DNA of 64,000 bases from an uncultured Clostridia bacterium (lineage in GTDB: Bacteria; CAYTYR01; UBA6262): positions 1 through 64,000 of the forward strand of contig CAYTYR010000011.1 of NCBI GenBank assembly GCA_964441745.1, given 5' to 3'. A program made the translations under genes and the position numbers. The notes beneath the pieces were generated by a model that saw nothing but the letters and a program-made list of their open reading frames with translations, made no database searches and was not told the DNA's origin. How positions within the stretch are numbered: the stretch's first letter is position 1; the number at the start of each line of letters is the position of its first letter. Below, in pieces: positions 808-27,772 of the stretch.

Positions 808-2994
808 TTACATGACAAACAGCATTTCGCGGTATTTCGGCAGGTCCCAATGCTCATCTGAGATCACAGTCTCCAGGTCATCACAATGCCGGCGTATATG
901 TTCCATCAAGGGCTTTAGCTCGTTAAAATATGTCTCTGCTTTTTCCGGCCCTTCTTCTCCGGCCGCTTTTTCCAGCAGTTTGGCCATGGCCAGGGTATGC
1001 TTCCGGACATAGTAGATCTTGTAAGTAACTTCTGACAAATGCTCTTTCAGGTCAGCATAGGCAGCTTCGTCAATTTTCAAACCGGCGCTAGCCTTGAGCT
1101 GGGTCAATTCAGAAACTACTTTAGCCAGCTGGCTCTGGTAATCCAGCCCCGACGGCACAACATTGGCATTGACCATCTCCTTGAGCGTATTGGCTTCGAT
1201 AGTGAGCATGGTATTATACATTTCGATCCAGATATGGTACCGGGACACTAATTCATCTTTGGTCAAAACTCCCAGTTTTTCAAAAATAGCGATATTGTCT
1301 TTTTTAGTTATCGCTTTCAGGGCTTTATATGTTGCGGCGATATTCGGCAAGCCCCTCTTTTCCGCTTCAGTTACCCATTCCGAAGCATAGTTATTGCCTT
1401 CAAAACGGATTTTTTTGGTCTCTTTCACCAGGGAGGTCACGACAGACATGACCGCGTTTTCCAGGTCCTTGGTCTTGGCTTGTTTTTCGATCTGTTCAGC
1501 CACATAGGTCAGTGAATCAGCGATGATCGTGTTCAGGATCATGATCGGGGTGGAAATATTCTGGGAAGAGCCCAGGGCGCGAAATTCGAACTTAGCCCCG
1601 GTAAAAGCAAAGGGCGAAGTGCGGTTGCGGTCAGTGGCATCTTTATTGATAGTCGGCAATTTGCCCACTCCCAGGCTGATGATATCTTGTTTGCTGACTT
1701 TTTGTTTGGCGCCTTTTTCGATAGTGTCGAGTATCGCATCTAATTGCTCTCCCAAAAATACCGAGACGATCGCCGGCGGTGCTTCATTAGCGCCCAGGCG
1801 GTGTTCATTACCGGCGAAAGCGATGCTCGCCCTTAACAGGTCAGCATGATTATACACCGCGCGCAGGATCGCGGTCAGGACTGCCAGGAATTGCAGGTTC
1901 TCCTGCGGCGAATTACCCGGATTCAGCAGGTTGTTTCCCTGGTCATCAGCCATGGACCAGTTCAAGTGCTTGCCGCTGCCGTTGATCCCGGCAAAAGGTT
2001 TCTCGTGCATCAGGCAGACCAGGTCATGGCGCAGGGCTACCTTCTTCATTATATCCATCAGCATCTGGTTATGGTCAGCCGCCAGGTTTGATTCCTCGAA
2101 GATCGGGGCAAATTCATACTGGTGCGGCGCTACTTCGTTATGGCGGGTACTTACCGGAATACCTACTTTATAGGCTTCGGCGCAGACTTCCTGCATATAG
2201 TTCAGCGCCCGGTCCTTGATCGAACCGAAATACTGGTCTTCCAATTGCTGGCCTTTTGGCGACGGCGCGCCGATCAAAGTGCGTCCAGTCAGCATCAGGT
2301 CCTGCCTCATATTATAATAATGCTTATCGATCAGGAAATATTCCTGTTCCGGCCCGCAGGTGGAAACTACTTTTTTTACATTCTTCTTAAAAACCTTCAA
2401 CAATTTTACCGCGGCTTTGCTGATCGCTTCATCAGACCTCAGCAACGGCAGTTTTTTATCCAAAGCATAGCCATGGTAAGAAACAAAGATACAAGGGATG
2501 CATAAGGTTTTGCCCAAAGCGGTTTCGCTGATAAAAGCCGGGCTGGAAGGATCCCACGCTGTATAACCGCGGGCTTCAAACGTGCTCCTGATACCGCCAG
2601 ACGGGAAACTGGAAGCATCCGGTTCCCCCAGGATCAGCTTGGACCCGGAAAATTTCTCGATCACTTTACCGCCCTTGAAAGTCAGAAAAGTATCATGTTT
2701 TTCCGCCGTCAACCCGGTCATCGGCTGGAACCAATGGGCATAGAAGTCCACTCCTCTTTCCACGGCCCAGTTTTTCATTGCTTCAGCGATTTCATCTGCT
2801 TCTTTCTCGTTGATGCTTTTGCCTTCACTGAGCCACAGCTTAAAAGACGCCATGGTCTTCTGGCTGACCCGTTTCTGCATTTCCGCCTGGTTGAAAGTAT
2901 TTACCCCGAAATAACTGGTGACTTTTTTCGGCTTTTCGTCCTTCACCAACTCCACACTGCCGATATTCTTTAACACGCTATGCCTGACATTCAT
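808..2994 (-). CDS. glnA: Glutamine synthetase type III
   Basis: Motifs HWFQP, EPDASSFPSGGIRSTFEARGY, EQEYF, HNEVAP, HEKPFAGINGSGKH, HRLGANEAPP, DRNRTSPF. Start moved to MNVRHS at 2994 (GGAGG at 3001-3005); the longer ORF reads through a palindromic repeat. Confidence 0.95.
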   Translation of the reverse strand: MNVRHSVLKNIGSVELVKDEKPKKVTSYFGVNTFNQAEMQKRVSQKTMASFKLWLSEGKSINEKEADEIAEAMKNWAVERGVDFYAHWFQPMTGLTAEKHDTFLTFKGGKVIEKFSGSKLILGEPDASSFPSGGIRSTFEARGYTAWDPSSPAFISETALGKTLCIPCIFVSYHGYALDKKLPLLRSDEAISKAAVKLLKVFKKNVKKVVSTCGPEQEYFLIDKHYYNMRQDLMLTGRTLIGAPSPKGQQLEDQYFGSIKDRALNYMQEVCAEAYKVGIPVSTRHNEVAPHQYEFAPIFEESNLAADHNQMLMDIMKKVALRHDLVCLMHEKPFAGINGSGKHLNWSMADDQGNNLLNPGNSPQENLQFLAVLTAILRAVYNHADLLRASIAFAGNEHRLGANEAPPAIVSVFLGEQLDAILDTIEKGAKQKVSKQDIISLGVGKLPTINKDATDRNRTSPFAFTGAKFEFRALGSSQNISTPIMILNTIIADSLTYVAEQIEKQAKTKDLENAVMSVVTSLVKETKKIRFEGNNYASEWVTEAEKRGLPNIAATYKALKAITKKDNIAIFEKLGVLTKDELVSRYHIWIEMYNTMLTIEANTLKEMVNANVVPSGLDYQSQLAKVVSELTQLKASAGLKIDEAAYADLKEHLSEVTYKIYYVRKHTLAMAKLLEKAAGEEGPEKAETYFNELKPLMEHIRRHCDDLETVISDEHWDLPKYREMLFVM

Positions 2995-3003
2995 TTTCTT
3001 CCT

Positions 3004-3176
3004 CCAAATCTGCTTCAGATTTGCCCCCCTGCTTAGATTTGCGTTGGCAAATCTAGGGGGGCTATTTTTTGCAAACCTCAATTCACCTTATCCCCCCTAG
3101 ATTTCCATGAAATCTATACAGGGGGATATTCTACTCATCCCCCCAAATTTGCATTAGCAAATTTAAGCGGGGGGAT
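3004..3176. repeat. Three copies (one forward, two inverted) of a ~40-bp CCCCCC...AGATTTGC-N4-GCAAATCT-AGGGGGG palindrome
   Basis: Copies at 3023-3062, 3090-3128 and 3137-3176; the same element recurs at 9771-9810 and 13927-13966. Confidence 0.85.
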
Positions 3177-3202
3177 ATTTTTTGCGATAACTCGCAAAAA
3201 AT

Positions 3203-3294
3203 AAAAAAACGTCCAATATAGTCAATGTCATTGACCATAATTGAACGTCTGTGTTCGCTCGGTTTTATGCCTATTCAAGCACAGCTTTGTGCCT
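3203..3294 (-). promoter_or_regulatory. Dual-hairpin attenuator (ANTAR-type) in glnA leader
   Basis: AGGCAC-AAAGCT-GTGCTT (3277-3294) and GAAC-ACAGAC-GTTC (3243-3256), both hexaloops with A1/G4. The second overlaps the 5' arm of an intrinsic terminator (3203-3248, U7 tail). TATAAT at 3299-3304. Confidence 0.75.
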
Positions 3295-3315
3295 AAAAAT
3301 TATACCTATCTGAAT

Positions 3316-3355
3316 TACTATCTATACAAGTAAAATTCTGCCGCTCTTGGTAACT
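3316..3355 (-). promoter_or_regulatory. Conserved upstream motif AGTTACCAAGAG..GC......TTTTACTTGTATAGAT
   Basis: Near-identical blocks at 18765-18804 and 27733-27772, upstream of the amt and urea operons. Confidence 0.65.
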
Positions 3356-3692
3356 ATAGCGCCTCCACTCCCTTTTCCGAGGTCCTGATCCTGATCGCGT
3401 CAACGATGGGATAGATAAATATCTTACCATCACCGATCTCCCCGGTCTTGGCAAATTTTATGATCGCGTCCGTGATCTTGTCCACATCCGCGTCCCTGGC
3501 AATGATCTCCAGTTTTACTTTGGGCACAAAATCCACTTTCATGGTCTCGCCCCGCCATTGTTGTTCCTTGCCTTTGTGCGTGCCGTGGCCTTCGATATTA
3601 CTGATCATCAGGCCAGGGTAACCAACTTCGCTCAGGGCTTTGCGCACCTCGCCGACTTTTTCCGGACGGATCACAGCTTCTATTTTTTTCAT
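3354..3692 (-). CDS. P-II nitrogen regulatory protein (112 aa)
   Basis: MKKIEAVIRPEK...[11 protein letters not shown]...IRIRT. Start at MKKIE (3692). Confidence 0.95.
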   Translation of the reverse strand: MKKIEAVIRPEKVGEVRKALSEVGYPGLMISNIEGHGTHKGKEQQWRGETMKVDFVPKVKLEIIARDADVDKITDAIIKFAKTGEIGDGKIFIYPIVDAIRIRTSEKGVEAL

Positions 3693-3693
3693 T

Positions 3694-4161
3694 TTAGCCC
3701 TCCTTCTCAAATTTCTTGAACAGGTTAATGACTTCATCCGCGGTTTTGACGGTATGGATCAAATCATTACGAAAAGACTCAATACGCAGCAGCTTGGATA
3801 GCTGCGAAAGTAATTGCAGGTATAAGCTGAGAGCCTGCGGATTGGTACCCATGGCAAAGATCAAGTTCACTTCATCCCCGTCCATAGCGGCGAAATCCAC
3901 CCCGGCGCTGGAACGGGCGAACCCTATTACAAACCCATCTACGGCTTGGGTCGGGGCATGCGGAATAGCTACTTTGTGGCCGATGCCTGTCGAGCCCAGT
4001 TTTTCCCGCTCCATCAGGTCATGGATGAATAGCTGCTCATCATTAACCAGGCCGATCCGGACCATGTGGGCGGATAATTCCCGTATCGCTTGTTCCTTGG
4101 TCGTCGCCTTCAGGTCCATCAGGCAGGCATCTTTTTGCAAATACTCTGATATTCTTTCCAT
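3694..4161 (-). CDS. PTS EIIA domain protein (fructose/mannitol/Ntr family, PtsN-like)
   Basis: ERE.LGSTGIGHKVAIPHA phospho-His motif, GVDF.AMDG..V.LIF. Confidence 0.88.
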   Translation of the reverse strand: MERISEYLQKDACLMDLKATTKEQAIRELSAHMVRIGLVNDEQLFIHDLMEREKLGSTGIGHKVAIPHAPTQAVDGFVIGFARSSAGVDFAAMDGDEVNLIFAMGTNPQALSLYLQLLSQLSKLLRIESFRNDLIHTVKTADEVINLFKKFEKEG

Positions 4162-4644
4162 CTAGGTTATCTCCTTATATAACTTCTCGACTTCCTCGGG
4201 ATTTTTGACTATCACTACCGGGCACTTCGCTTCCCGGAAGAGCAGTTCCCCTTCATCTGAAAAAACTTCTTTGCGTGAGGTTATTTCCTTAGGATTTCCC
4301 ATCACCAGCAGGCAGGTGCTGGTCTCCTGGGCTTTCTTGATTATTTCTTCATGTACCATGCCGCGCAGAACCATGCTCTCGAATTCAATCTTTTTGGTTT
4401 CAGCCGCTTTCTTGATCCGCTCCAGGAAAAGCTTTCCCTGTTCTTCCAGGTCTTTCTCATAGACTTTCGCCTCGATATCCACTACTACCCGGCTACGCAT
4501 CAAGTCCTTCAACAACTGCTCATTTACCACATATACGGCGGTGAGTTTCGAAGACATGACCCGGGCCAGGTAAATAGCGTACTTGGCAGTGATGATGGAA
4601 GCCGCGCCGCCCGCGACTGCTACCATGATGTTTTTAATGGGCAT
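4162..4644 (-). CDS. Universal stress protein (USP)
   Basis: IKNIMVAV...LTAVYVV...G.VHEEII..A...LLVMG...AKCPVVIV pattern. Confidence 0.85.
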   Translation of the reverse strand: MPIKNIMVAVAGGAASIITAKYAIYLARVMSSKLTAVYVVNEQLLKDLMRSRVVVDIEAKVYEKDLEEQGKLFLERIKKAAETKKIEFESMVLRGMVHEEIIKKAQETSTCLLVMGNPKEITSRKEVFSDEGELLFREAKCPVVIVKNPEEVEKLYKEIT

Positions 4645-4654
4645 CTTTTCACCT

Positions 4655-5272
4655 TTATTTTTTTATTTTTTGTTTGATCAGTTTGAGCATGGAAAAAGCG
4701 TCCCGGGATTCTTCTTCCAGGCGGTCATTGATATTCTTTTCCGCTTCCTGGTAATAAGGTATATACACTTTTTCCAGGGCATTGACCTTCCTGATGGTCT
4801 TTTGCGCTTCCTGAGCCAACCGTAAAGTGGTGATCTTCAGTTCGGCCAGCCTGGCCAACAGGACCAGTATTTTCTTGAACCGGTCAGTCGCATCCTCAGC
4901 CGCCATATTCACTTTGAGGGAGCTGAAATAAGGCGGATGGTCTTTCATCTGGAGATTGATCACCGGTACTGACACGCCCATCACGCGGCGCGAGGTCAGG
5001 CGCAGGTTCGCTTCTGTTTCCACTGCCAGGGACATTTCTGAAAGTTTTTTCCGTCCCATAATGACCGTAGCGCGGTTCACCGCGGCATAGCCGGCAGCCA
5101 GGGCAGCGTCGGTTTCTTCTTCGGTTTTTTGCATTTTATGGATGATGGCGCCGATCTCACCCAGCAGGATCTTCCGTTTTTCATCCAGCAATTCATAACC
5201 TTCCCTGGTGACAGACAGGTTCTTTTTCACTTTCAACAGGTTGGTTTTGGTCGCTGCTATATTGATCCGCAT
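4655..5272 (-). CDS. ntpD: V/A-type ATPase subunit D
   Basis: ATKTNLL...GYELLDEKRKIL, VMGVSVP, KTIRKVNALEKVYIP. Confidence 0.93.
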   Translation of the reverse strand: MRINIAATKTNLLKVKKNLSVTREGYELLDEKRKILLGEIGAIIHKMQKTEEETDAALAAGYAAVNRATVIMGRKKLSEMSLAVETEANLRLTSRRVMGVSVPVINLQMKDHPPYFSSLKVNMAAEDATDRFKKILVLLARLAELKITTLRLAQEAQKTIRKVNALEKVYIPYYQEAEKNINDRLEEESRDAFSMLKLIKQKIKK

Positions 5273-5275
5273 ATA

Positions 5276-6658
5276 CTATTTACCCTTATAATATTTGTTA
5301 AGCGCTTCTTCCTTGACCCGGACCAGCTCGCTCTTAGGCAGGGTACTCAGCACTTCCCAGCCGATCTCCAGGCTTTGTTCCAGGCTCCGGCGCTCATAGT
5401 ATCCCTGGGATACGAATTTCCGTTCAAACGCATCGCCGAATTGCAGGTATTTCTGGTCCAAGGGCGACAGCTCTTCCTCGCCGATGATAGCAGCCAGGGC
5501 CCGGATATCCTTGACCTGGGCATACGCGGCAAACAACTGCGACGCTAAAGCCGGATGGTCATCCCTGGTCTTGCCCTCGCCGATATTGTCTTTCATCAGG
5601 CGGGACAGGGAAGGCAGTCCGGCGATCGACGGATAGATGCCGCGGCTGTGCATTTCCCGCTCTAGCACTATTTGTCCTTCAGTGATATATCCGGTCAGGT
5701 CCGGCACCGGATGCGTAATGTCATCGTTGGCCATGGTCAATATCGGTAATTGGGTGATCGAGCCGCTCACTCCCTTGATCATACCAGCCCGTTCATACAA
5801 ACTGGCCAGGTCGCTGTATAAATATCCCGGGTACCCTTTCCTGGCGGGTATCTCGCCCCGGATCGTGGATAATTCTCTTAACGCTTCGCAATAATTGGAC
5901 ATATCAGTCATGATCACCAGCACGTGCATATTTTTCTTGAACGCCAGATATTCGGCGCAGCTCAGGGCCAGGCGCGGGGTCATCAACCGTTCAATAGAGG
6001 GGCTGTCTGCCAGGCTGAGGAAAACTGTTACTCTTTCCAGTACGCCTGATTCTTCAAAACTCTTGATAAAATACCGGGCAGTATCGTATTTGATGCCCAT
6101 ACCGGCAAAGACCACAGCGAAACTTTCGCCTTTGACCTGGGCCTGGCGGGCGATCTGCGTCGCCAGCAAGTCATGCGGCAGGCCGCTGCCGGAAAATACC
6201 GGCAGTTTTTGTCCGCGCACCAGGGTATTCATCACATCAATAGCCGAGATCCCGGTCTCGATAATATTATTAGGATAATCGCGGGCCGTGGGATTGATCG
6301 CCATGCCATTCACATCCACCAGCTCGTCATACGCCGGCCGGGGCATTTTGTCCAGGGGATTACCAACACCGTCGAAAACGCGTCCCAGGACATCTTCCGA
6401 AACCCCGAACAGGAGTGGTTTTTCCTTGAACCTCACCTTGGATTTGGCAATGGAAAGGCCGCTGGTGCCGCCCAGGACCTGCACCACGGCAAATCCCTTG
6501 CCTACTTCCAGGGTCAGGCCGATGCGCGTCTTGCCGTCATCATCGATTATTTCCACCAGTTCATTATAACCGACATTGTGGATATTCCGGATGATGAAGA
6601 TCGGCCCGACTATTTCCTGCAGTCCCACATATTCAATTAAATTCCCGTAATTTTTCAT
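5276..6658 (-). CDS. ntpB: V/A-type ATPase subunit B
   Basis: [65 protein letters not shown]. Confidence 0.96.
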
Positions 6659-8415
6659 TAGAAGTCTGCCACCTTTAAGGACTCGCTAATCCGCTCCGGC
6701 ATTTTTTCCAGCTCGTCCAACTGTTCTTCCGTATATCTTGTTTTCATGCGCATCAATTCATTGTAGATCGGCATCTCCTTAATTTCATTAGCCGACATCC
6801 CCTGCTTGATGACTTCTTCGCTGATATGATAAAAAGCCAGCATGTTCTTCAGCATCAGGAACTGTTTGCGCGCCGAGGTAAAAGTATCTATCTTATCGAA
6901 AGCCTGCTGCTGCAGGAACCCGTTCTTGAACAGGGTGCAGACCAGCAATACCAATCTCTGGTTTTGCGGCAGGACATCCGGGCCGACCAGCTTGACCACC
7001 TGCTGTAATTTCTGCTCCTTCTGCAGGAGGTCCATGATCTCATAGCGCAGTTTGAGCCAGTCCTGGTCCACGTTCTTGCTCCACCAGCCCTGCACATCAT
7101 CCAGGTATTCGGTATAACTGTCGATCCAGCTGATCGACGGATAATGCCGGGCATTGGCCAGCTCGCGGTCCAGGGCCCAGAAACAACGCACAAACCTTTT
7201 AGTATGCGAGGTTACCGGTTCGGAGAAATCTCCGCCTGGCGGAGAAACCGCCGCGATAATGCTGATCGAGCCGTGCTGTCCGCTCAGGGTAGTGATATTG
7301 CCTGCCCGTTCATAGAATCCAGCCAGGCGTGACGGCAGGTAGGCTGGGAATCCTTCTTCCAGGGGCATTTCTTCCAACCGGCCAGACAATTCGCGCAGTG
7401 CTTCTGCCCACCTGCTGGTAGAATCCGCCATCAGGGCCACATGATAGCCCATGTCGCGGAAATATTCAGCTATGGTAATACCGGTATAGATGCTGGCTTC
7501 ACGCGCCGCGACCGGCATATTAGAAGTATTAGCGATAAAAATAGTGCGTTCCATCAGCGGCCTCTTGGTCCGCTGGTCGATCAGTTTGGGGAAAGTCTGC
7601 AAAATATCCGTCATCTCATTGCCGCGTTCACCGCAGCCGACATAGACCACGATCTGGGCGTCGCTCCACTTGGCCAGTTGGTGCTGGACCACTGTTTTGC
7701 CAGTGCCAAATCCTCCCGGTACAGCTACTGCCCCGCCCTTGCCCACCGGGAACAGCGTGTCGATCACTCTCTGCCCGGTGATCAGCGGTTCGACGATCGG
7801 CAATCTCTCTTTGCTGGGACGCGGGACCCGCACCGGCCAGCGCTGCAGCAGTTTGATCTCCTGCTCGCCAGACTCTGACTGGACCACGGCAATAGTATCT
7901 TCCAGGGAATAATCGCCTTCCCCAACCATCTTTTTTATCGTGCCAGAAATGTCCGGACTGGCCATGATCTTATGGTTGATCAGCACAGTCTCCTGGACTG
8001 AGCCGATGATCTCTCCGCCAATAATATTTTCACCGGCTTTTTTCACCGGGGTAAAATGCCATTTTTTCGCCCGGTCCAGTGTTTGCACATGGACGCCGCG
8101 GCTGATATAGACGCCTTGTTTTTCGCGAATGACTTCCAGGGGGCGTTGGATACCGTCAAAAATATTGCCGATCATACCTGGCCCGAGCTCCACGTATAAA
8201 GGGAAGCCCTGGGTATAGACCAGGTCCCCGGCTTTCACCGAGGTAGTATCTTCGTACACCTGCACAAAAGCCCGGTCATCCTTGAGCCGCATCACTTCCC
8301 CTACCAGATGCTGCTCGCCGACCTCAACCATGTCCAGCATGCGTACGCCGACGACTTCTTCCAGCTCCACCACCGGCCCTGACACCCTGTAAATTTTGCC
8401 CGCTACTCTCTGCAT
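6658..8415 (-). CDS. ntpA: V/A-type ATPase subunit A (catalytic)
   Basis: Walker [46 protein letters not shown]. Confidence 0.96.
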
Positions 8416-8418
8416 GGA

Positions 8419-9039
8419 TTATGCCTCCCGCAACAGGCGCATGTATAATTCATCATATTTCCTTCTGAGCCTGGCGGCAAAACGGTTATCGAACATCTTC
8501 TTACCGTCTGCTGATTGGATGATCACGCCCAGGTCCTTAAAATCGCTTTTTTTCCAGCTAGCTTCAAGATTATTTTTCTTTATTTCCGCTATGATCTTCT
8601 CACTCACCAGCTTGTCATCCAGGGAGGAATAAAAGATCTCCACTTTTTTATCGCCGACGATCTTGATCCCTTCCAGGACCGCGTCCCTGAAAAATCCCGC
8701 GTACCCGGCTGCGCTGCGGAATTCCGCGGCTTTCTTCCCGACCAGGTCAAAGACCTGGTTGATCAGGGTATTCTTGCTTTCCAGCAGGACTCTCTTCTTT
8801 TCCAGGTTGATCGTGGAAAAGATCTTCTCTTTCAATTTTTCCAGCTCCCGCTCCAACTGTCCGCGTTCCAGCCGGACTTTCTCGTCTGCTTCCAGGCGCG
8901 CTTTTTCCCTGATCGCGCCTGCGTCTTTCCGGGCGCGCTCCAGTATTTCCACGGCTTCGGTTTTGGCCGCCTCCAGGATACGTCCTACTATTTCCCCGGC
9001 ATTCTGCTCATTTATTTTAGTATAATCTTCTTTTATCAT
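8419..9039 (-). CDS. ntpE: V/A-type ATPase subunit E
   Basis: N-terminal coiled coil (ILEAAKTEA), C-terminal LGVII...DNRF..RL; position between F and A. Confidence 0.85.
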   Translation of the reverse strand: MIKEDYTKINEQNAGEIVGRILEAAKTEAVEILERARKDAGAIREKARLEADEKVRLERGQLERELEKLKEKIFSTINLEKKRVLLESKNTLINQVFDLVGKKAAEFRSAAGYAGFFRDAVLEGIKIVGDKKVEIFYSSLDDKLVSEKIIAEIKKNNLEASWKKSDFKDLGVIIQSADGKKMFDNRFAARLRRKYDELYMRLLREA

Positions 9040-9342
9040 TTAGATCTTTATGCCCATCGCTTCCTTCAGGATATTACCGGCGCTCTTGCGCGCTTTTACC
9101 TGGCCGCTGGAAGGGATCTCCAGAATCAAGGGGATATCCACATCCTGGATATACTTATCCACCTCGGCCCGTCCCAGCTCTGCCGCTTTTTCCGTGATAA
9201 TGATCACCCCGACACTCTCTGTAGCCAGGGCCACTTTGAAAGCTTCCAGTAATTCATTCTTGGAGCCTGCTTCCAGGGTTTCCACCCCGGCCAATTTAAA
9301 TCCCAGGCTGCTATCTCTATCCGCGATACAAAAAAACTTCAT
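9040..9342 (-). CDS. ntpF: V/A-type ATPase subunit F
   Basis: IADRDSSLGFKLAGV, GVIIITE, PLILEIP, AMGIKI. Confidence 0.9.
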   Translation of the reverse strand: MKFFCIADRDSSLGFKLAGVETLEAGSKNELLEAFKVALATESVGVIIITEKAAELGRAEVDKYIQDVDIPLILEIPSSGQVKARKSAGNILKEAMGIKI

Positions 9343-9392
9343 ATTTTATCCTAAGAGCTTTTATTCTTCTTTTGTCTCTACTACCAACGGTA

Positions 9393-9740
9393 CTAAGACA
9401 CCTTCCCCAGGATCATAATGGCGATGATCAAACCATAAATAGCGATACCTTCAGCCAAACCGACGAAGATCAAGGCCCGGCCAGCCATTTCCGGCTTCTC
9501 GCTGATCGCTCCGATCGCTGAAGACCCTACATAACCAACGGCAATGCCCGCGCCCACAGTGCTCAAACCCGTCACTATGGCTGCGGCCATAAAGCCCCAT
9601 TTCACTACTTCAGGATTGGTCGCGGTAGTCGCTGCCTGTTCTGCCGGACCTTCTGCCCGGGCAAACTGGTATAACGACACTCCGGCTAATACCAGGGTCA
9701 ACAAAACCATGGCTCCCAACAACTTTCTCGCATTCTTCAT
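9393..9740 (-). CDS. ntpK: V/A-type ATPase subunit K/c (single hairpin plus signal-like N-terminus)
   Basis: GAGIAVGYVGSSAIGAISEKPE...GLAEGIAIYG with the conserved Glu. Start moved to MKNARK at 9740. Confidence 0.92.
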   Translation of the reverse strand: MKNARKLLGAMVLLTLVLAGVSLYQFARAEGPAEQAATTATNPEVVKWGFMAAAIVTGLSTVGAGIAVGYVGSSAIGAISEKPEMAGRALIFVGLAEGIAIYGLIIAIMILGKVS

Positions 9741-9750
9741 CTTCTTCCCC

Positions 9751-9811
9751 CCCGAATGGCTTTGCCATTCGCCCCCCTGTTTAGATTTGCTCAAGCAAAT
9801 CTAGGGGGGTT
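9751..9811. repeat. Composite palindromic repeat next to the ntpK RBS
   Basis: cccgaatggctttgccattcg+cccccctgtttagatttgc-tcaa-gcaaatctagggggg; nearly identical to 13907-13967. Confidence 0.85.
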
Positions 9812-9986
9812 TCTTTATTTAAAATACGATTACACAGATTAAACCTTAACTCACCTGTCCCCGCGTCTTTGATCCCGATTTATCGGGATCAGCAGGGGAA
9901 AACTCAAAATTCAAAACTCAAAACTGCTTTTTCTGTCAACAATCTCCGCCAAAGGCGGATCAGCCTCTGGCTGAAACTATCAACTC

Positions 9987-11897
9987 TTACAGCGTTAGCG
10001 GTTTATATTCCTTTTTCCCAGTCACAAAAAACTTGGAAAAGAACTCATAATAATTAAGACGCACTGATTGGATACTGACCACCAGCCCTTCCAGCAAGAT
10101 CACGAATATATTTCCCAGGATAATGATCAGCCAGGACACTGTCCCGCCGCCGATCCCCCTGGTAATACTGGATAATTCGAAGATCGCCAGGAACAAACCC
10201 GCGTGCGCCAGGGCAAAAGCCGCTACCCGGATAAAAGACACGGTATTAGCCAGGTAGCCCATAAAGAACTCCACCATATCGATCAGGTTTTCCACAACGA
10301 ACAGGAAGAAATTCTCTTTTTCCCGGCTGAGGAAATAGCTCACAAATGGCTTGAGGAACAGGGCCGCCACGCCAATGATCATCAGGGTCATATAGACCGG
10401 CGAGATCGGAGTTTTCTGGATAAAGGCCTTGGTCACTATGGCCAACACCAGCCAGTAAACTGCGCCGGCGATCAGCCCGGTCTTGTCAAAAAGAGCTTTC
10501 TGGTAATTCTTGTCGCGAATGGAATTGACCACATTGATCAGTATTCCCGTACTGATGATCGTCACGCCGAAAATAACGCTTATTTTGAACATCTGCATGA
10601 TATTATTGATCGGGTGCGGCCAGACAGACGCGAACTCATAGCCGAAAACACTGCCGTACAGCCAGCCGAAGATTGTCGAGCTGGCGCCGCAATACAGGAT
10701 CAGGGCCCCGGCTTGTTTCACTTTTTCATTGGCGCTCTTAAAAAAGAACAAGCTGGCCAGGACCAGTATCAGGCCGTGCCCGATATCGCCGAACATCGCC
10801 CCGAACATCAGCAAAAAACTGATGGCCACGAAAATAGTCGGGTCTATCGTACCGTAGCGTGGCAGTCCATAGGCTTCCAACAGCAGTCCAAATGGTTTGA
10901 CCATGGCTGTATGTTTCAATTTCACCGGTATATCTTCCAAGGCCATCCCGGTATCTTCGGCTCTTTTTTCTTCCACGTACGCTTGCCCGGCCAATTTTCT
11001 TATCTCCCTGATAGTCTCATCTTTCAGGTCTGCCGGCACCCAGCCGGACAGGACCGCGGTTTTTTCCGTGGTATAGGAAAAACGTTTAGCCTTTAACAGG
11101 GATTTTTTCAAAGCGATAAAATATTTGATCTTTCCCAGGTCACCGCGGAAACGTTCACCGAGAATTTTGATCTGGGCCTTGGCTTCGGTTAATTTAGTTT
11201 TGTAGGCGACGATCTCTTCCCTGATCTTCTTCTCTACTTCTTTAGGTATCTGTGGTTCTTCTTCCGTATATTCCACTTTTTGCCAGTAAAATTCTTTTAA
11301 AACTTTTTCCAGTACTGCCCGGTCCCGGCGCAAGCCGATGATCACGGTTAGCAGGCGGCCGTCCGGATCCTTGCGGAACGGATAGATCACATGCGGGATA
11401 TGTTCCAGGTTCTGCGCCAGCAGGGAAATATTCTTTTCCTCGATCTTGCCGGTCGCCACTTCCAGGAAAGAATACCCAGCGCTCCGCTTTACCGGGAAAG
11501 GCAGGAAATCTTTGACCTGGGACAGCATGGTTTCCTTGGTTTTGAGCTCCGAGGCCAATACATCGCGTTTTTCCGCCAGCGGCGAAGCCTCATTTTGGAT
11601 CGTCTCCACGATCTGCTGGACCTTGGCCTGGTTGAATTCTTCCAGGTTCACTCCCGGATTATAATCATAAGACAATTCCAGCCGCCGGCTCAGGTCCCGC
11701 AGGGACAGGTCGAGGGTTTCCCATTCTGCGAATTCTTTCTCTACCTGGTACGGGGTCAGGGTCTCGATATTGGTTTCGATCTGGCGCAGGTCCACCGGGT
11801 GGAAGATCCCCTTTTTCAGGAGTTTAGAAACAACCTCTTCCGCTTTTTCTTTCAGTACCAGGATGTTGACCAGCTCCATTGCTTCGGTACTTAGCAT
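9987..11897 (-). CDS. ntpI: V/A-type ATPase subunit I (a)
   Basis: YGLPRYGTIDPT, FGAMFGDIGHG, ANTVSFIRVAAFALAH (essential Arg), IQSVRLNYYEFF. Confidence 0.94.
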   Translation of the reverse strand: MLSTEAMELVNILVLKEKAEEVVSKLLKKGIFHPVDLRQIETNIETLTPYQVEKEFAEWETLDLSLRDLSRRLELSYDYNPGVNLEEFNQAKVQQIVETIQNEASPLAEKRDVLASELKTKETMLSQVKDFLPFPVKRSAGYSFLEVATGKIEEKNISLLAQNLEHIPHVIYPFRKDPDGRLLTVIIGLRRDRAVLEKVLKEFYWQKVEYTEEEPQIPKEVEKKIREEIVAYKTKLTEAKAQIKILGERFRGDLGKIKYFIALKKSLLKAKRFSYTTEKTAVLSGWVPADLKDETIREIRKLAGQAYVEEKRAEDTGMALEDIPVKLKHTAMVKPFGLLLEAYGLPRYGTIDPTIFVAISFLLMFGAMFGDIGHGLILVLASLFFFKSANEKVKQAGALILYCGASSTIFGWLYGSVFGYEFASVWPHPINNIMQMFKISVIFGVTIISTGILINVVNSIRDKNYQKALFDKTGLIAGAVYWLVLAIVTKAFIQKTPISPVYMTLMIIGVAALFLKPFVSYFLSREKENFFLFVVENLIDMVEFFMGYLANTVSFIRVAAFALAHAGLFLAIFELSSITRGIGGGTVSWLIIILGNIFVILLEGLVVSIQSVRLNYYEFFSKFFVTGKKEYKPLTL

Positions 11898-11981
11898 ACC
11901 TACCCTATTTTCCAGTTTTTATCTAAACCAAAAACTTCAGACCTACGTCCATACTTACTTCTACAACCTACAACTTCTTAC

Positions 11982-13019
11982 CTAATTTACAATTTGGGCC
12001 AGTTCTTCTTTTTTCCAGCCATATTTCTTGGCATAGATGAGAGAAACCAGGGTTCCTGTCTCTTTGCGCTTGAGCACCAGGTACCCCAAAATAATTCCGA
12101 TGGTGAAAGGGAATCCACCGAGAGCCCGGCGCACTTCCCGGGAAAGTACTTCATATAATATATTTTCCAGCAAAGCCATATTGCCCATAACCAGGTCTTT
12201 CAATCTGGCATACGGCCCTACCGCCAGAGTCTCAAATATCTGGTCCAGGTCTTCGCTCAGGTAGATATTGCGGATATTCTCTTTTTGTATCCTGGCGCCG
12301 CCCGGCAGCATCCAAGGCAGCATTTCACCCATGCCCAGGGCATAATATTTTTTGGAGCGTACCAGCCAATTGATATTCTCGATATCCACTTCCACGCCCA
12401 GGATCGCCTTGGCTACGGTCTTATCAACGGCTGACAATTTTTCTATGGCCGCGCCCATTCTTTCATAGTAATCCAGGTCCAGGGCCACTTCCAGATAGAA
12501 TAAAGAATGGCTTTCTTTGAACTTCTCCCGCGCCTTCAACAACGGCGTCCGGTATGGGGTCTGGTCCAACAGCAGGATTATCTCTTCAATATTCTTGGCG
12601 ATCAGGACCTGCCGCCAGTCCAGCGGGTAGCAAATATTCTCTCCCAGCAGGTAATCCTCGGCTGGCACCGGCGCGTTCTTGTGCCAGAGGCGCAGGACCA
12701 CCTTTAACTGCTCTATTTCATATCTCTGCATTAACAGGAAGAGCAGGTTTTTTTCATCCGTAGAGGTCATGGTGCTGAAAAGCTTGCGGTGGATAGCTAT
12801 ATCATGCCGCATGAATTCCTGTTCGAGGGCTTCCAGCTCCAGGTCCCCGGCCGCGAATTTCTCAGTCATCTGCCGGTACGGGGTCTGGGCCAGGTCAGCC
12901 AGGAGCGCTGATACGTCTTCCGCTTCCCGCAGGTGATCGAACTGCTCCGGCGTCAGCAAGTTAGAGAGCATCGCTCTCACTTTGGCATTAATGAACGAAT
13001 ACTTACCTAATTGTCCCAT
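11982..13019 (-). CDS. ntpC: V/A-type ATPase subunit C (d)
   Basis: YSFINAKVRAM.S.LL, LDLDYY, EVDIENI.W..R.K; operon position. Confidence 0.88.
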   Translation of the reverse strand: MGQLGKYSFINAKVRAMLSNLLTPEQFDHLREAEDVSALLADLAQTPYRQMTEKFAAGDLELEALEQEFMRHDIAIHRKLFSTMTSTDEKNLLFLLMQRYEIEQLKVVLRLWHKNAPVPAEDYLLGENICYPLDWRQVLIAKNIEEIILLLDQTPYRTPLLKAREKFKESHSLFYLEVALDLDYYERMGAAIEKLSAVDKTVAKAILGVEVDIENINWLVRSKKYYALGMGEMLPWMLPGGARIQKENIRNIYLSEDLDQIFETLAVGPYARLKDLVMGNMALLENILYEVLSREVRRALGGFPFTIGIILGYLVLKRKETGTLVSLIYAKKYGWKKEELAQIVN

Positions 13020-13028
13020 TGTTAATCG

Positions 13029-13361
13029 CTATTCTTCTACCTTTATTATCTCCGCGAAAACAGTTTCTGCCTGGCGGGGAATATTCTTTTGTTTATTTTT
13101 CAGCCCTTCAGCGCTGGCCGCGCGCTCCTCTTGGAGGAGCTGGTCCTTCTGCTTCAGCAGGGTGTCCTGGGTTTCAGCGAGCTTACGGCTGTATTCCTCT
13201 TTCATATCTTTAAGCGCGCCGGCAACCTTGGACCCGGCTTCAGTTTTGGCCTCAGCTATCAGGCGGTCGGCTTCTGCCTGGGCATCCTGTACTGCCTGGC
13301 GGGCTTTATTCTCTTCGTCCACTATCCGGTCAATAATTTCCTTCACTACGTGCTCCCTCAA
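13029..13361 (-). CDS. V/A-type ATPase subunit G/H (peripheral stalk); start may be GTG at 13346
   Basis: ~110-aa Ala/Glu/Lys coiled coil (IVDEENKARQAVQDAQAEA), first gene of the operon. Confidence 0.72.
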   Translation of the reverse strand: MREHVVKEIIDRIVDEENKARQAVQDAQAEADRLIAEAKTEAGSKVAGALKDMKEEYSRKLAETQDTLLKQKDQLLQEERAASAEGLKNKQKNIPRQAETVFAEIIKVEE

Positions 13362-13554
13362 ACATGTTTATATATCCTATGCGCTACTCTGGACACCGCT
13401 AATCATTAATATAATCATATCTTGTAGCAAAAACCAGCTATAAATGCAAGATAATACCAAAAAAATCTTAAAACTCCATTTTAGGGGTGCGGGCGTTCTC
13501 CCTTTGGAGGAGAGAACGCCCTGATGTCTAATTCCCTTTATTTTACGCGCTTTC

Positions 13555-13896
13555 TTAACCTATGGCTTCTGATCCTTTTTCCCCGGTCCGGATCCTATAG
13601 CATTCTTCCAGGTCCAGGACAAAGATCTTGCCGTCACCGGTCTGGCCGGTCTTGGCTGCCTTGGAAATAGCCTTGATAGTCGTCTCCACGAACTTGTCAT
13701 TGACCGCTATCTCCAGCTTTACTTTCTTAATAAGGTTACCTGCTTCCTTGACCCCGCGGTAAACCTCAGTGACACCTTTCTGCCTGCCGCAGCCCAGCAC
13801 ATTGGAGACGGTTTTCAAATGGATCTCTGCTTTTTCCAGTTCATCCATCACCTCATCCAGCTTGTGCGGCTGTATTATCGCGATAATCAGTTTCAT
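13555..13896 (-). CDS. glnK: P-II protein, amtB-linked
   Basis: [31 protein letters not shown]; directly downstream of amtB. Confidence 0.93.
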
Positions 13897-13906
13897 ACTT
13901 TAGCCT

Positions 13907-13967
13907 CCCGAATGGCCTTGCCATTCGCCCCCCTGTTTAGATTTGCTAATGCAAATCTAGGGGGGTT
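13907..13967. repeat. Composite palindromic repeat next to the glnK RBS
   Basis: Same sequence as 9751-9811 apart from loop changes. Confidence 0.85.
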
Positions 13968-13980
13968 CCTTTTATTTTCA

Positions 13981-15336
13981 TTAATCTACCAATGTATAAG
14001 CAGTCTCTTTATGCTGGGTGATATCCAGGCCGATCAATTCTTCTTCTTCCTTCACTCTTAAGCCCATAACCTTATCCAGTATCTTGAGCAGGACGAACGT
14101 GACAGCCGCGGCATAAGCCATAGTGGCGATCACGCCGATAGCCTGGGTCCAGAGGAGAGAAGCATTGCCATAGAACAAGCCATTATTACCAGCTGCGTTG
14201 ACCATTTTGGTAGCGAACAAGCCAGTCGCCAAAGCGCCAACCGTACCGCCGACACCATGCACGCCGAAAGCGTCCAGGCTGTCGTCATACCCGAATTTAT
14301 GCTTGAGCACTGAGACAAACAGGTAGCAAACCAAAGCCACCAGGATACCGATACCCAACGCACCCATGGGAGTGACAAATCCAGCAGCCGGGGTCACTGC
14401 CACTAAGCCAGCCACTGCTCCTGAAGCTCCGCCTAAAGCAGTCGGCTTGCCAATAACAAGCCAGTCCAGGAACAGCCAGGTTAAAGCCGCCATAGCTGCC
14501 GCTGAATTGGTAGCAATGAAGGCATTAACCGCCAGTTCATTAGCTCCCAAAGCGCTCCCGGCATTGAAGCCGAACCAGCCGAACCACAGCAAAGCCGCGC
14601 CTAACAGGGTAAAGACCATATTATGCGGCGCGACAGGACGAGCCGGGTAATTTTTGCGCTTGCCGATCATCAAAGCAAAGACCAGGGCGGAAATACCGGA
14701 AGAAATATGCACGACTGTGCCGCCGGCAAAATCCAGGGCGCCCATCGTCTTTAACCAGCCGCCTGTGCCCCAGACCCAATGACAGATCGGGTCATATACT
14801 ATCGTCGCCCACAGCAAGCTGAACACCGCGAAAGTCGAGAATTTGATCCTCTCAGCGAAAGCGCCGGTGATCAGGGCCGGGGTAATGACCGCGAACATCA
14901 TCTGGTAGATCATGAACAGGTTATGCGGAATAGTCCCGGCATAATCAGGATTTGGCGCCGAGCCAACCCCGCTCAAAGCAAACCATTTCAAACTGCCGAT
15001 AAAATGGCCGATATCCGGCCCGAAAGACAGACTATATCCCCACAGTACCCATTGGACACTGATCAAGCCCAGCAGGAAAAACGACTGCATCATGGTTGAA
15101 AGCACATTTTTGCGGCGCACCAATCCGCCGTAAAACATCGCCAGTCCGGGAGCAGTCATCATCATCACCAGTGCTGTTGACATTAATATCCAGGCAGTAT
15201 CACCGCTATCTGTGGCCGGAGCCGGCACAGATTCTACCGGGCAAACAGCCGGGGTGGTAACTGCTCCTTCAGCTAACAAAAGGCCGGCCGTAAAAACAGC
15301 GGTTAAGATCAACAAACAACCTAATACTTTCTTCAT
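13981..15336 (-). CDS. amtB: Ammonium transporter
   Basis: PGLAMFYGGLVRRKN, DFAGGTVVH, WFGWFGFNAGS, DDSLDAFGVHG (twin His intact). Confidence 0.96.
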   Translation of the reverse strand: MKKVLGCLLILTAVFTAGLLLAEGAVTTPAVCPVESVPAPATDSGDTAWILMSTALVMMMTAPGLAMFYGGLVRRKNVLSTMMQSFFLLGLISVQWVLWGYSLSFGPDIGHFIGSLKWFALSGVGSAPNPDYAGTIPHNLFMIYQMMFAVITPALITGAFAERIKFSTFAVFSLLWATIVYDPICHWVWGTGGWLKTMGALDFAGGTVVHISSGISALVFALMIGKRKNYPARPVAPHNMVFTLLGAALLWFGWFGFNAGSALGANELAVNAFIATNSAAAMAALTWLFLDWLVIGKPTALGGASGAVAGLVAVTPAAGFVTPMGALGIGILVALVCYLFVSVLKHKFGYDDSLDAFGVHGVGGTVGALATGLFATKMVNAAGNNGLFYGNASLLWTQAIGVIATMAYAAAVTFVLLKILDKVMGLRVKEEEELIGLDITQHKETAYTLVD

Positions 15337-15423: not shown

Positions 15424-15603
15424 TTAATCTATCCCTAATTTATCCCGGACTAATTTTGCATAAACTTTATTGATGCGGTTGGTCTTTAGCCAGCGTTCAA
15501 TAGTGCTAATTTGTAGATCCAGTTTCTTAGAAAGATCATACAATGTATAATCTCTTTCTTCTTTTATTTGTATAATTTTTCTAATTAGTTCCTGATCTAT
15601 CAT
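15424..15603 (-). CDS. Small XRE/Cro-like helix-turn-helix protein (59 aa)
   Basis: Below the ORF-track cutoff. MIDQELIRKIIQIKEERDYTLYDLSKKLDLQISTIERWLKTNRINKVYAKLVRDKLGID; the T-L-x-D-L-S-x-x-L...S-T-I-x-R-W pattern is HTH-like. Confidence 0.7.
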   Translation of the reverse strand: MIDQELIRKIIQIKEERDYTLYDLSKKLDLQISTIERWLKTNRINKVYAKLVRDKLGID

Positions 15604-17487: not shown

Positions 17488-18204
17488 TTAAAAGTTAATA
17501 TCTAATTGCGTCGTCGCCTGGTCATTGGGATTTATCTGGTCATTATTGTAAATGACATAGCCCAGGATCACGCTGACATTGGGCGCGAAACTGTAAGAAG
17601 CGCCAAAACTCAATGATCCGTAAAAACTATCCCCGGATGCATAATCAACAGACGCCCATATTTTATCCGTGATGGCTTTGTCCCAGGTCAGGATCACACC
17701 GGTGTTGGCTTTTTCACCATTTTCATCCAGCAATAGCTGGTCATTTCCGGAATATCCGCCGACCGTCAACCGTCCGACCGGACCAAAGGTCTTCGCGACC
17801 ACTCCATATATGATATTGTAATTGGTGACATCACTCTTGGTCCCGAGGCTTAGTATACCCACTGCAGCTGAGGGTATCATATCCTTTTCCGGTAATCCGG
17901 CCTTGAAATTGAAATACGCTGGATACTGGGATGGGTAAGCCAGGTCTATGCCGGCTTCAAAATAATTCAGGAACCCATAGGTCAATCCCACATATGTCGG
18001 TGAGGCATACGGATGATCCAGATTATCCTTCACTGAATAGTAGTTATCAATACCCAGGTGGAACTTTCCAGTGGGTTGGATATCCGTAGATGGATTCCAG
18101 ATCTGCGTACTCGGCGTAGCCATAGCCCCGTTCACCTGATACAGCCCGAAAACTGCCACAAATACCGCTATAAACATTAGCTTGCTTAATGTTATTTTAT
18201 TCAT
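17488..18204 (-). CDS. Putative outer-membrane beta-barrel protein
   Basis: Signal peptide (…NGAMA|TP), alternating amphipathic strands, C-terminal QLDINF. Confidence 0.6.
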   Translation of the reverse strand: MNKITLSKLMFIAVFVAVFGLYQVNGAMATPSTQIWNPSTDIQPTGKFHLGIDNYYSVKDNLDHPYASPTYVGLTYGFLNYFEAGIDLAYPSQYPAYFNFKAGLPEKDMIPSAAVGILSLGTKSDVTNYNIIYGVVAKTFGPVGRLTVGGYSGNDQLLLDENGEKANTGVILTWDKAITDKIWASVDYASGDSFYGSLSFGASYSFAPNVSVILGYVIYNNDQINPNDQATTQLDINF

Positions 18205-18273
18205 TATCTTCTCCTTTGTTTTAATACGATTACACCGATTCAAGCAAGAGCATTTAATCTGTGTAATCGTTTT

Positions 18274-18614: not shown

Positions 18615-18804
18615 CAAATAAAAAAAGACGCCTTATTGTAATCCTTCACGGATCCTAATAAGACGCCTGCGTCTTTGTTTCCTACCGTAAACAATAATAG
18701 CGTTCTGACACCTACTCAGAACGCCTTTGTTTTTGCCCCTTCATCGGAGCCATATTCTATTGCCTTACATCTATACAAGTAAAAAACAGGCACTCTTGGT
18801 AACT
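18615..18804. repeat. 190-bp direct repeat copy 1 (promoter plus attenuator leader)
   Basis: Identical by eye to 27583-27772. Confidence 0.95.
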
Positions 18805-27582: not shown

Positions 27583-27772
27583 CAAATAAAAAAAGACGCC
27601 TTATTGTAATCCTTCACGGATCCTAATAAGACGCCTGCGTCTTTGTTTCCTACCGTAAACAATAATAGCGTTCTGACACCTACTCAGAACGCCTTTGTTT
27701 TTGCCCCTTCATCGGAGCCATATTCTATTGCCTTACATCTATACAAGTAAAAAACAGGCACTCTTGGTAACT
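27583..27772. repeat. 190-bp direct repeat copy 2
   Basis: Identical by eye to 18615-18804. Confidence 0.95.

Follow-up and report, generated by a model that had tools for sequence, protein, structure and literature searches.

Probable accessory USP and EIIA genes, with an adjoining P-II gene, at the end of a V/A-type ATPase operon of an uncultured Clostridia bacterium

Why should the operon of a rotary ATPase end in genes for a USP-domain protein, a phosphotransferase system (PTS) EIIA protein, and a P-II protein, and lie between ammonium transporter and glutamine synthetase genes? The question is raised by a 64,000-nucleotide stretch of DNA from an uncultured Clostridia bacterium (assembly GCA_964441745.1, contig CAYTYR010000011.1, positions 1 to 64,000; hereafter the window, contig C11 of the assembly), where a V/A-type ATPase operon runs on the minus strand from 13361 to 3354. 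According to open reading frames (ORFs) and Pfam, the operon reads G/H-C-I-K-F-E-A-B-D followed by USP, PTS EIIA, and P-II, and the transcription order with flanks is amt, glnK, G/H, C(d), I, K, F, E, A, B, D, USP, EIIA, P-II, and GS III, the glutamine synthetase gene. The first-pass annotation of the window read this arrangement as a dedicated, nitrogen-regulated ATPase with its own three-protein sensory module. The subunit order, the flanks, and the tight spacing of the tail that it described are confirmed by Pfam and sequence: 10 bp separate the D stop from the USP ATG, 0 bp the USP TAG from the EIIA ATG, and 1 bp the EIIA TAA from the P-II ATG. The unitary module did not hold up, as USP and EIIA follow an ATPase clade in several phyla and P-II is found at the tail only in this genus. 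We consider it probable that the operon encodes a general H+-type V/A ATPase with conserved USP/EIIA accessory genes, the P-II gene and the nitrogen context being lineage-specific.

The phylum-level group of the window comprises only nine genomes, and the survey therefore rests on a search for related loci. An alignment of the membrane subunit I (A1) was used to select the best 80 of at least 580 relatives on contigs from one genome per species; their genes are ORFs called in this analysis, labelled by phmmer and purpose-built profiles. Among the nine genomes, the window-type operon is present in the window genome (G000), G002, G004, and G006, so that the neighbourhood, for which the first-pass annotation had proposed such a survey, is not unique to one genome. 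The complete D-USP-EIIA-P-II tail is found in G002 and G004, which belong to the same genus as the window; the sister genus G006 has amt-glnK-G-C-I-K-F-E-A-B-D-USP-EIIA-GS III with 34–81% protein identity and no P-II in the tail. In G036, from another phylum-level group, the order EIIA-G-C-I-K-F-E-A-B-D-USP was confirmed by Pfam, and its flanks encode DUF1015, SH3, and SPOR proteins, with no nitrogen genes nearby. Since the tail recurs in G002, G004, and G006, and USP and EIIA also in distant phyla, the arrangement is, on comparative grounds, judged to be beyond chance.

The order G-C-I-K-F-E-A-B-D is kept in nearly all 80 surveyed loci. Gene D is visible in 52 of them, and 48 are informative, their sequence continuing for 500 nt or more beyond D; in 17 of the 48, the gene following D is USP, and in 31, USP is absent. 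The D-to-USP gap is between −8 and +98 nt in 16 of these 17 loci, often −4 or −1, and the seventeenth, L082, has an ORF listed between the two genes. Even in the permuted operons L124 and L040 (K-F-E-A-B-D-USP-G-C-I), USP still directly follows D. The I-subunit tree (FastTree) places the window in a clade of 28 rows labelled Ca. Omnitrophota, Spirochaetota, Phycisphaerae, Victivallales, and Anaerovoracaceae. Within this clade, USP is found in 13 and EIIA in 11 of the 14 informative loci, L059 being the exception for USP; outside the clade, the counts are 4 and 1 of 34. EIIA follows USP in the Omnitrophota-labelled loci, L056, and L082, and precedes G in L062, L069, L075, L094, L099, L104, L121, and L123; USP occurs without EIIA in L054, L064, L081, L105, and L124. 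The EIIA tree and the I-subunit tree give the same groups, including the Victivallales and Anaerovoracaceae pair.

Nitrogen genes next to the operon were seen in the window, G006, and L047 only, the last with amt-P-II upstream. The gene maps of the Omnitrophota-labelled loci L048, L050, and L053 contain no Amt, P-II, or GS III, and genes other than nitrogen genes lie immediately behind the tail of L048 and L050. Ten genes flanking nine other USP-positive loci encode a GlgC-like protein, TGT, PEBP, three DnaJ-domain proteins, an Hsp70-like protein, a photolyase, and two proteins without Pfam matches. Gene order and trees thus show USP and EIIA to be co-inherited with the ATPase operon across phyla and independent of nitrogen genes. 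As a separate observation, a DnaJ-domain protein gene follows USP at the end of the ATPase operon in three spirochaete loci (L104, 12213–13019; L105, 17723–18472; L121, 18112–18888).

The window USP gene (4162–4644, minus strand) encodes a USP-domain protein of 160 aa (Pfam Usp, 2.3e-14), and the Pfam family is matched by 19 of the 20 aligned operon-linked members. The profile built from them (A2) matches solved USP structures, the best being TTHA0350 (5.2e-21). At the place of the motif G-2x-G-9x-G-S/T, the phosphate-binding motif of ATP-binding USPs of the UspFG/MJ0577 class, the window protein reads MGNPKEITSRKEVFSDEGE; in the alignment, the motif is kept in L081 only. Searched with the window USP or the A2 profile, G042–G045, G004, and G006 each gave a single match, located at the operon. 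No match was found in G001, G003, and G005, all of which are without this ATPase, nor in G041, where the operon ends at the contig end. Since USP is gone together with the ATPase in G001 and G003, it appears to be specific to the operon and tightly linked to the enzyme.

The EIIA gene (3694–4161, minus strand) encodes a PtsN-like protein of 155 aa (Pfam PTS_EIIA_2, 1.4e-32) with the phospho-histidine H68 in an AIPH motif. PTS_EIIA_2 is matched by all 15 operon-linked EIIAs, every one of which has H68. Among solved structures, those nearest to the window protein are the PtsN proteins 4gqx, 2a0j, and 3urr, with the AIPH histidine aligned. The protein scores below the PtsN equivalog cut-off (TIGR01419, 76.8 vs 138.7 bits) and slightly above that of the fruA-type IIA domain model (TIGR00848, 104.6 vs 103.5). 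Phosphoryl donors are present in the genome: contig C14 carries EI, HPr, HprK, and a second EIIA, to which the tail EIIA, a second paralogue, is 31% identical. It should be mentioned separately that the Phycisphaerae-labelled locus L062 has an amino-acid permease with a C-terminal EIIA fusion (2669–4561) a few kilobases upstream of its EIIA-ATPase-USP operon.

Congeners without this ATPase provide a further view of EIIA. In G003 (L214, 5538–7858) and G001 (L215, 2189–4514), the same slot holds genes for a CBS-pair protein, a CitMHS/ArsB-type permease, and EIIA, followed by GS III, with amt and P-II immediately upstream in G003. The slot EIIAs are 52–55% identical to the tail EIIA and fall inside the clade of ATPase-linked EIIAs; the GS III proteins are 96% and 79–80% identical. 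No orthologue of the CBS-permease pair was found in G000. In G001 and G003, USP and the tail P-II are thus gone with the ATPase and EIIA is retained. This swap of ATPase-USP-P-II against CBS-permease within one genus, with EIIA kept, amounts to a natural experiment on the EIIA target.

The last gene of the tail encodes a divergent P-II protein of 112 aa (Pfam P-II, 5.3e-30). Its true extent on the minus strand, 3354–3692, was fixed from the sequence because the gap from the EIIA TAA to its ATG reads as 1 bp; the listed match lies within 3354–3737. The T-loop reads GHGTHKGKEQQWRGETM, and positions 38, 39, and 51 are occupied by T, H, and M in place of the canonical R38/Q39 of the Mg-ATP/2-oxoglutarate site and Y51 of the modification site. 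K58 and the C-terminal RIRT segment are retained. A search among 5.8 billion proteins brought up a single close relative (83%); this protein, P0002, has T, T, and L at the three positions. In the eight other relatives compared, position 38 is K or R and position 39 is Q, with Y51 in seven and F51 in P0012.

Orthologues of the tail P-II were found only in G002 and G004, the ATPase-bearing congeners. None of 80 metagenome P-II loci (best identity 60%) has USP or D beside P-II; Amt is present in 29 of them, and in 13, glutamine synthetase directly follows P-II on the same strand. Because of the 1-bp gap to EIIA and a GS III promoter-like motif right after the P-II stop, the tail P-II gene is predicted to belong to the ATPase transcription unit, and it is apparently a local, genus-specific addition. 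A P-II domain was also noted at the C-terminal end of a 626-aa ORF of G006 (L037, 4072–5952).

The identity of the enzyme itself bears on its supposed dedication to nitrogen. The assembly (2.07 Mb, 39 contigs, 98% complete) encodes two V/A-type A/B pairs and no F-type alpha/beta pair, the fifth PF00006 match in the genome being a 428-aa protein with 91 bits. A second ATPase, for which the first-pass annotation had suggested looking, does exist: a V-type operon on contig C1 (239009–247820, L216) with the order H-I-K-E-C-F-A-B-D. The subunits of the two operons are 52% (A), 55% (B), 29% (D), and 21.5% (I) identical. The C1 operon K is a four-helix proteolipid that matches the Na+-binding NtpK of E. 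hirae (2bl2, E 2.4e-31), with PGTQG, QGKV, and VETYA conserved; PDB matches of the window-operon K include Thermus subunit K and eukaryotic proteolipids. The Na+ site of the NtpK type, presumably formed by T64/Q65/Q110/E139, is found in the C1 operon K and is missing from the window-operon K, which has no Q or T/S at the corresponding places. The window-operon K resembles single-hairpin V/A K subunits and H+ proteolipids, and from these K motifs, the window ATPase looks H+-type. In G006 (95% complete), the window-type A/B pair is the only rotary ATPase pair detected. Because of this, the first-pass proposal of a dedicated ammonium or urea pump is not sustained, and we infer that the window ATPase is a general bioenergetic ATPase/synthase.

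The operon has a nitrogen setting. The genome has five P-II genes, every one of them in the island of the window, which also contains ureB/ureC, two amt genes, a urea-type ABC system, and GS III, and placement of the operon between amt-glnK and GS III stands as described in the first-pass annotation. Exactly three copies of a composite promoter-like motif, GTTACCAAGAG-N8/9-TTTTACTTGTATAGAT, were found in the genome (3320–3353, 18769–18802, and 27737–27770), each in the island, upstream of GS III, the P-II-4/amt unit, and the 378-aa/urt/ure unit; it is also conserved upstream of GS III in G006 and probably marks a nitrogen regulon. The genome-wide motif search found none upstream of the ATPase operon. 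Sigma-54 promoters upstream of G and GS III were considered and rejected, as the GG-to-GC spacing, inspected by eye, is off by one in both.

Entry of transcription from glnK was judged from the glnK-G spacer. Sequence and fold calculations show a GC-rich hairpin at 13491–13521 (minus strand) as its only stable element, followed by GCACCCC and no U-tract, just as first reported. Its stem motif, GCGTTCT-N11-13-AGAACGC, has three copies in the 2.07-Mb genome (13493–13519, 18700–18724, and 27668–27692); half-sites number 76 and 54, and the other two copies lie in duplicated nitrogen leaders. Because the hairpin lacks a U-tract and shares its stem motif with these leaders, read-through from amt-glnK, as proposed earlier, is plausible, and either read-through or regulated termination into the ATPase operon would be possible. 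The spacer between glnK and G in G006, in contrast, has a U-tract hairpin in which a sigma-70-like promoter is embedded.

U-tracts do follow the hairpins in the leaders of GS III and P-II-4. Directly behind the P-II stop, the GS III control region (3196–3353, minus strand) begins with the promoter-like motif (3320–3353) and continues into a structured leader with a U-tract terminator (3196–3249); the leader region is conserved in G006, and the fold of 3150–3300 has a z-score of −7.35 against shuffles. An exact 190-nt duplicate leader precedes two nitrogen operons (18615–18804 and 27583–27772; fold z −4.4). Such structured leaders with U-tract hairpins suggest attenuation control. An Rfam scan of positions 1–30000 with E values up to 1 gave no riboswitch or leader family. 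Its sole match was 5_ureB_sRNA (82.8 bits, 20093–20387, plus strand), antisense within ureC/ureB, which probably reflects the conservation of the urease genes. A REP-like palindrome, CCCCCC-TAGATTTGC-N4-GCAAATCTA-GGGGGG, is present at 3023–3063, 3090–3127, 3157–3176, 9782–9803, and 13938–13959; three copies lie between P-II and GS III, one expands the I-K spacer, and one lies between amt and glnK. It was rejected as a nitrogen operator, as the loose pattern has 59 matches on 27 contigs.

The operon contains the complete V/A-ATPase subunit set, A, B, D, F, C(d), E, G/H, I, and K, all of it on the minus strand, with G/H assigned by a weak match and position. The first gene (13029–13361, 110 aa) has no Pfam match and a weak NCBIfam AhaH match (E 2.9e-4); it is called peripheral-stalk subunit G/H by its position, held by G/H in nearly all related operons surveyed, and by a profile built in this analysis. 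It is followed by subunit C (d, AC39 family; 11982–13019, Pfam vATP-synt_AC39, 8.4e-56) and membrane subunit I (a; 9987–11897, Pfam V_ATPase_I, 1.8e-30). Subunit I is 46–47% identical to that of G006 and 32–33% to that of G036; R613 in VRLNYYEF, presumably the functional arginine of this subunit, is invariant in the three-sequence alignment. Subunit K (c; 9393–9740, Pfam ATP-synt_C and clade alignment) forms a single hairpin, bears a signal-like extension at its N-terminus, and contains the carboxylate motif GLAEGIAIYG. The listed K ORF extends to a TTG at 9794; because this TTG is inside a REP-like palindrome, the likely start is the ATG at 9740.

Subunits F (9040–9342, Pfam ATP-synt_F, 4.9e-20) and E (8419–9039, Pfam vATP-synt_E, 1.1e-13) come next, and then the catalytic subunit A (6658–8415; Pfam ATP-synt_ab and ATP-synt_ab_Xtn; NCBIfam NF003220, 875.9 bits, cut-off 470), subunit B (5276–6658, Pfam ATP-synt_ab, 9.7e-77), and the central-stalk subunit D (4655–5272, Pfam ATP-synt_D, 6.8e-43). 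The V/A type of A and B is confirmed by ATP-synt_ab, ATP-synt_ab_Xtn, and ATP-synt_VA_C. Upstream lie glnK (13555–13896, minus strand, Pfam P-II, 2.5e-28) and amt (13981–15336, minus strand, Pfam Ammonium_transp, 6.9e-133). Downstream, GS III is listed as an ORF of 808–3081 (minus strand; Pfam GSIII_N, Gln-synt_C, and Gln-synt_C-ter), and its likely start is at 2994, giving 808–2994, because the G006 alignment begins at residue 30 of the listed ORF. Two further minus-strand frames of the island were noted between P-II genes and amt: a 59-aa ORF (15424–15603), with a similar frame at the corresponding place in G006, and a 251-aa protein (17488–18243) with a signal-like N-terminus, without a Pfam or NCBIfam match and 64% identical in G006 at the same place.

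How, then, are the tail genes best understood? The idea of a dedicated nitrogen-regulated rotary ATPase for NH4+, urea, or K+ uptake, with USP-EIIA-P-II as its own sensory module, would account for an operon embedded co-directionally in the island described above, with its five P-II genes and its amt, urease, urea-type ABC, and GS III genes; for the amt-glnK/GS III placement kept in G006 and amt-P-II upstream in L047; for the glnK hairpin without a U-tract and with a stem motif otherwise confined to two nitrogen leaders; and for a tail P-II that, by its gap, would be co-transcribed and occurs only alongside the ATPase. We nevertheless regard it as quite improbable. USP/EIIA go with this ATPase clade in several groups, among them Spirochaetota, Planctomycetota, Lentisphaerota, and Bacillota, with nitrogen neighbours seen only in the window, G006, and L047 and none of Amt, P-II, or GS III in the three Omnitrophota-labelled loci named above; G006 has this enzyme as the only one detected in a 95% complete genome, a U-tract hairpin and a sigma-70-like promoter between glnK and G, and no P-II in its tail; and the island promoter motif is absent upstream of G. 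Alternatively, the tail genes may serve nitrogen assimilation, EIIA (and here P-II) regulating GS III or other transporters in the manner of glnB-glnA, with an incidental position next to the ATPase. For this explanation, EIIA was counted as lying immediately before GS III in G006, the ATPase-less G001 and G003, and the window genus, which fits it, as do the glutamine synthetase genes after P-II in 13 of the 80 metagenome loci and the EIIA domain fused to an amino-acid permease in L062. It is still unlikely in our view, since EIIA stands at an ATPase operon without glutamine synthetase in 9 of 11 in-clade EIIA-positive loci, the EIIA and I-subunit trees agree in their groups, among the genomes checked, USP was found nowhere but at the operon, GS III has a promoter-like motif of its own, with an attenuator, downstream of the tail, and P-II was lost with the ATPase in G001 and G003 rather than kept with GS III.

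USP could also be a structural or assembly factor of the ATPase clade, for example, a chaperone of the D/F rotor, that does not respond to signals, EIIA being an independent add-on. Its constant place behind D, start and stop codons overlapping, which is kept where the operon is permuted, the loss of the nucleotide-binding motif in most members, which speaks against ligand sensing, and the five loci with USP and no EIIA are in line with such a role; that 31 of 48 informative loci have the same gene order without USP, and that the structure matches of the A2 profile include TeaD, a regulator of its own transporter, make it a very improbable account. The reading preferred here, a general ATPase with accessory genes, has to contend with several observations of its own. 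The Chloroflexota loci (24 tree rows) and most Bacillota have neither USP nor EIIA where the surroundings of D are visible; within the clade, L059 lacks both, and L054 and L105 lack EIIA; USP and EIIA are thus dispensable for this enzyme type. The orthologous EIIA persists without the ATPase in G003 and G001, and so EIIA has, or can take, another partner, such as the permease or GS III. The window USP is without the ATP-binding motif. The 80 loci, as the best-scoring of at least 580 relatives, are a biased sample, and the gene calls and most family labels come from our own ORF lists and purpose-built profiles.

With these points taken into account, we still favour a general H+-type V/A ATPase whose accessory genes, USP and EIIA, are probably regulatory. 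In such a system, USP, with its degenerate nucleotide motif, would serve the enzyme as an adaptor or brake that adjusts ATP hydrolysis or synthesis to the energy and nutrient state, and EIIA would report the phosphorylation state of the EI-HPr-HprK relay as a phosphorylation-dependent switch. The divergent P-II, without the canonical T-loop residues, would have been added to the transcription unit and would possibly feed in ATP/ADP or nitrogen status. A bolder version, which we put forward only tentatively, is that USP and the PtsN-like EIIA are the first dedicated protein regulators of a prokaryotic V/A ATPase, USP docking on the enzyme, EIIA switching it by PTS phosphorylation according to carbon, energy, and nitrogen supply, and P-II serving as a third input.

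Known systems offer partial parallels. The V/A-ATP synthase of Thermus thermophilus (5gar and 6qum are among the K matches) has the same nine subunits, A, B, D, E, F, G/H, C(d), I(a), and K(c), and in both, K is a single-hairpin c subunit whose gene product has an N-terminal extension. The window order differs from the archaeal and Thermus-like H-I-K-E-C-F-A-B-D in that C precedes I and F precedes E; the C1 operon has the Thermus-like order. We know of no USP, EIIA, or P-II genes described in the Thermus operon. The ntp operon of the Enterococcus hirae Na+ V-ATPase is likewise a bacterial V-type operon and ends in the extra non-subunit genes ntpH and ntpJ (K+ uptake); its four-helix NtpK (2bl2) with the Na+ site resembles the C1 operon K and not the window K.

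For the tail proteins, the closest precedents concern other membrane machines. PtsN (EIIA-Ntr) of E. coli controls K+ transport through TrkA and KdpD. The window EIIA resembles it in the PTS_EIIA_2 fold, the aligned AIPH histidine, the EI/HPr/HprK set of the genome, and a gene beside a membrane ion-transport machine, and differs in scoring below the equivalog cut-off, in being a second paralogue, and in its presumed target, a rotary ATPase, which to our knowledge is not a known PtsN target. TeaD binds ATP and regulates the TeaABC transporter, and a USP domain and UspC act with KdpD. Like TeaD of the TeaABC TRAP system (3hgm; USP-profile match E 1.8e-13), the window USP is a small USP whose gene stands at or near the end of a membrane transport operon; unlike TeaD, it is without the G-2x-G-9x-G-S/T motif, and its would-be partner is a rotary ATPase. 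The tail P-II shares with GlnK/GlnB the P-II fold and length, K58, RIRT, and a site in a nitrogen island; it differs in following EIIA and not amt and in having T, H, and M at 38, 39, and 51 instead of R/K, Q, and Y.

The earlier remark that no rotary ATPase with co-encoded P-II, EIIA, and USP has been described agrees with the literature search: no paper on a V/A-ATPase operon with these genes was found in the titles, abstract beginnings, and passages covered by it. In the passages available from PMC10066038, a V-type ATPase is mentioned once and nothing is said of USP, EIIA, or P-II.

Taken together, the close attachment of the USP gene to D and the inheritance of a phosphorylatable EIIA along with the operon in several phyla point to candidate regulators of V/A-ATPases. 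F-type enzymes (epsilon, zeta, IF1) and eukaryotic V-ATPases do have protein regulators; for bacterial V/A-ATPases, we know of none. The idea is open to direct testing, as the same operon is present in a cultured spirochaete whose genome is complete (locus L121). If it is true, such regulators would link the control of a rotary ATPase to the regulatory PTS.

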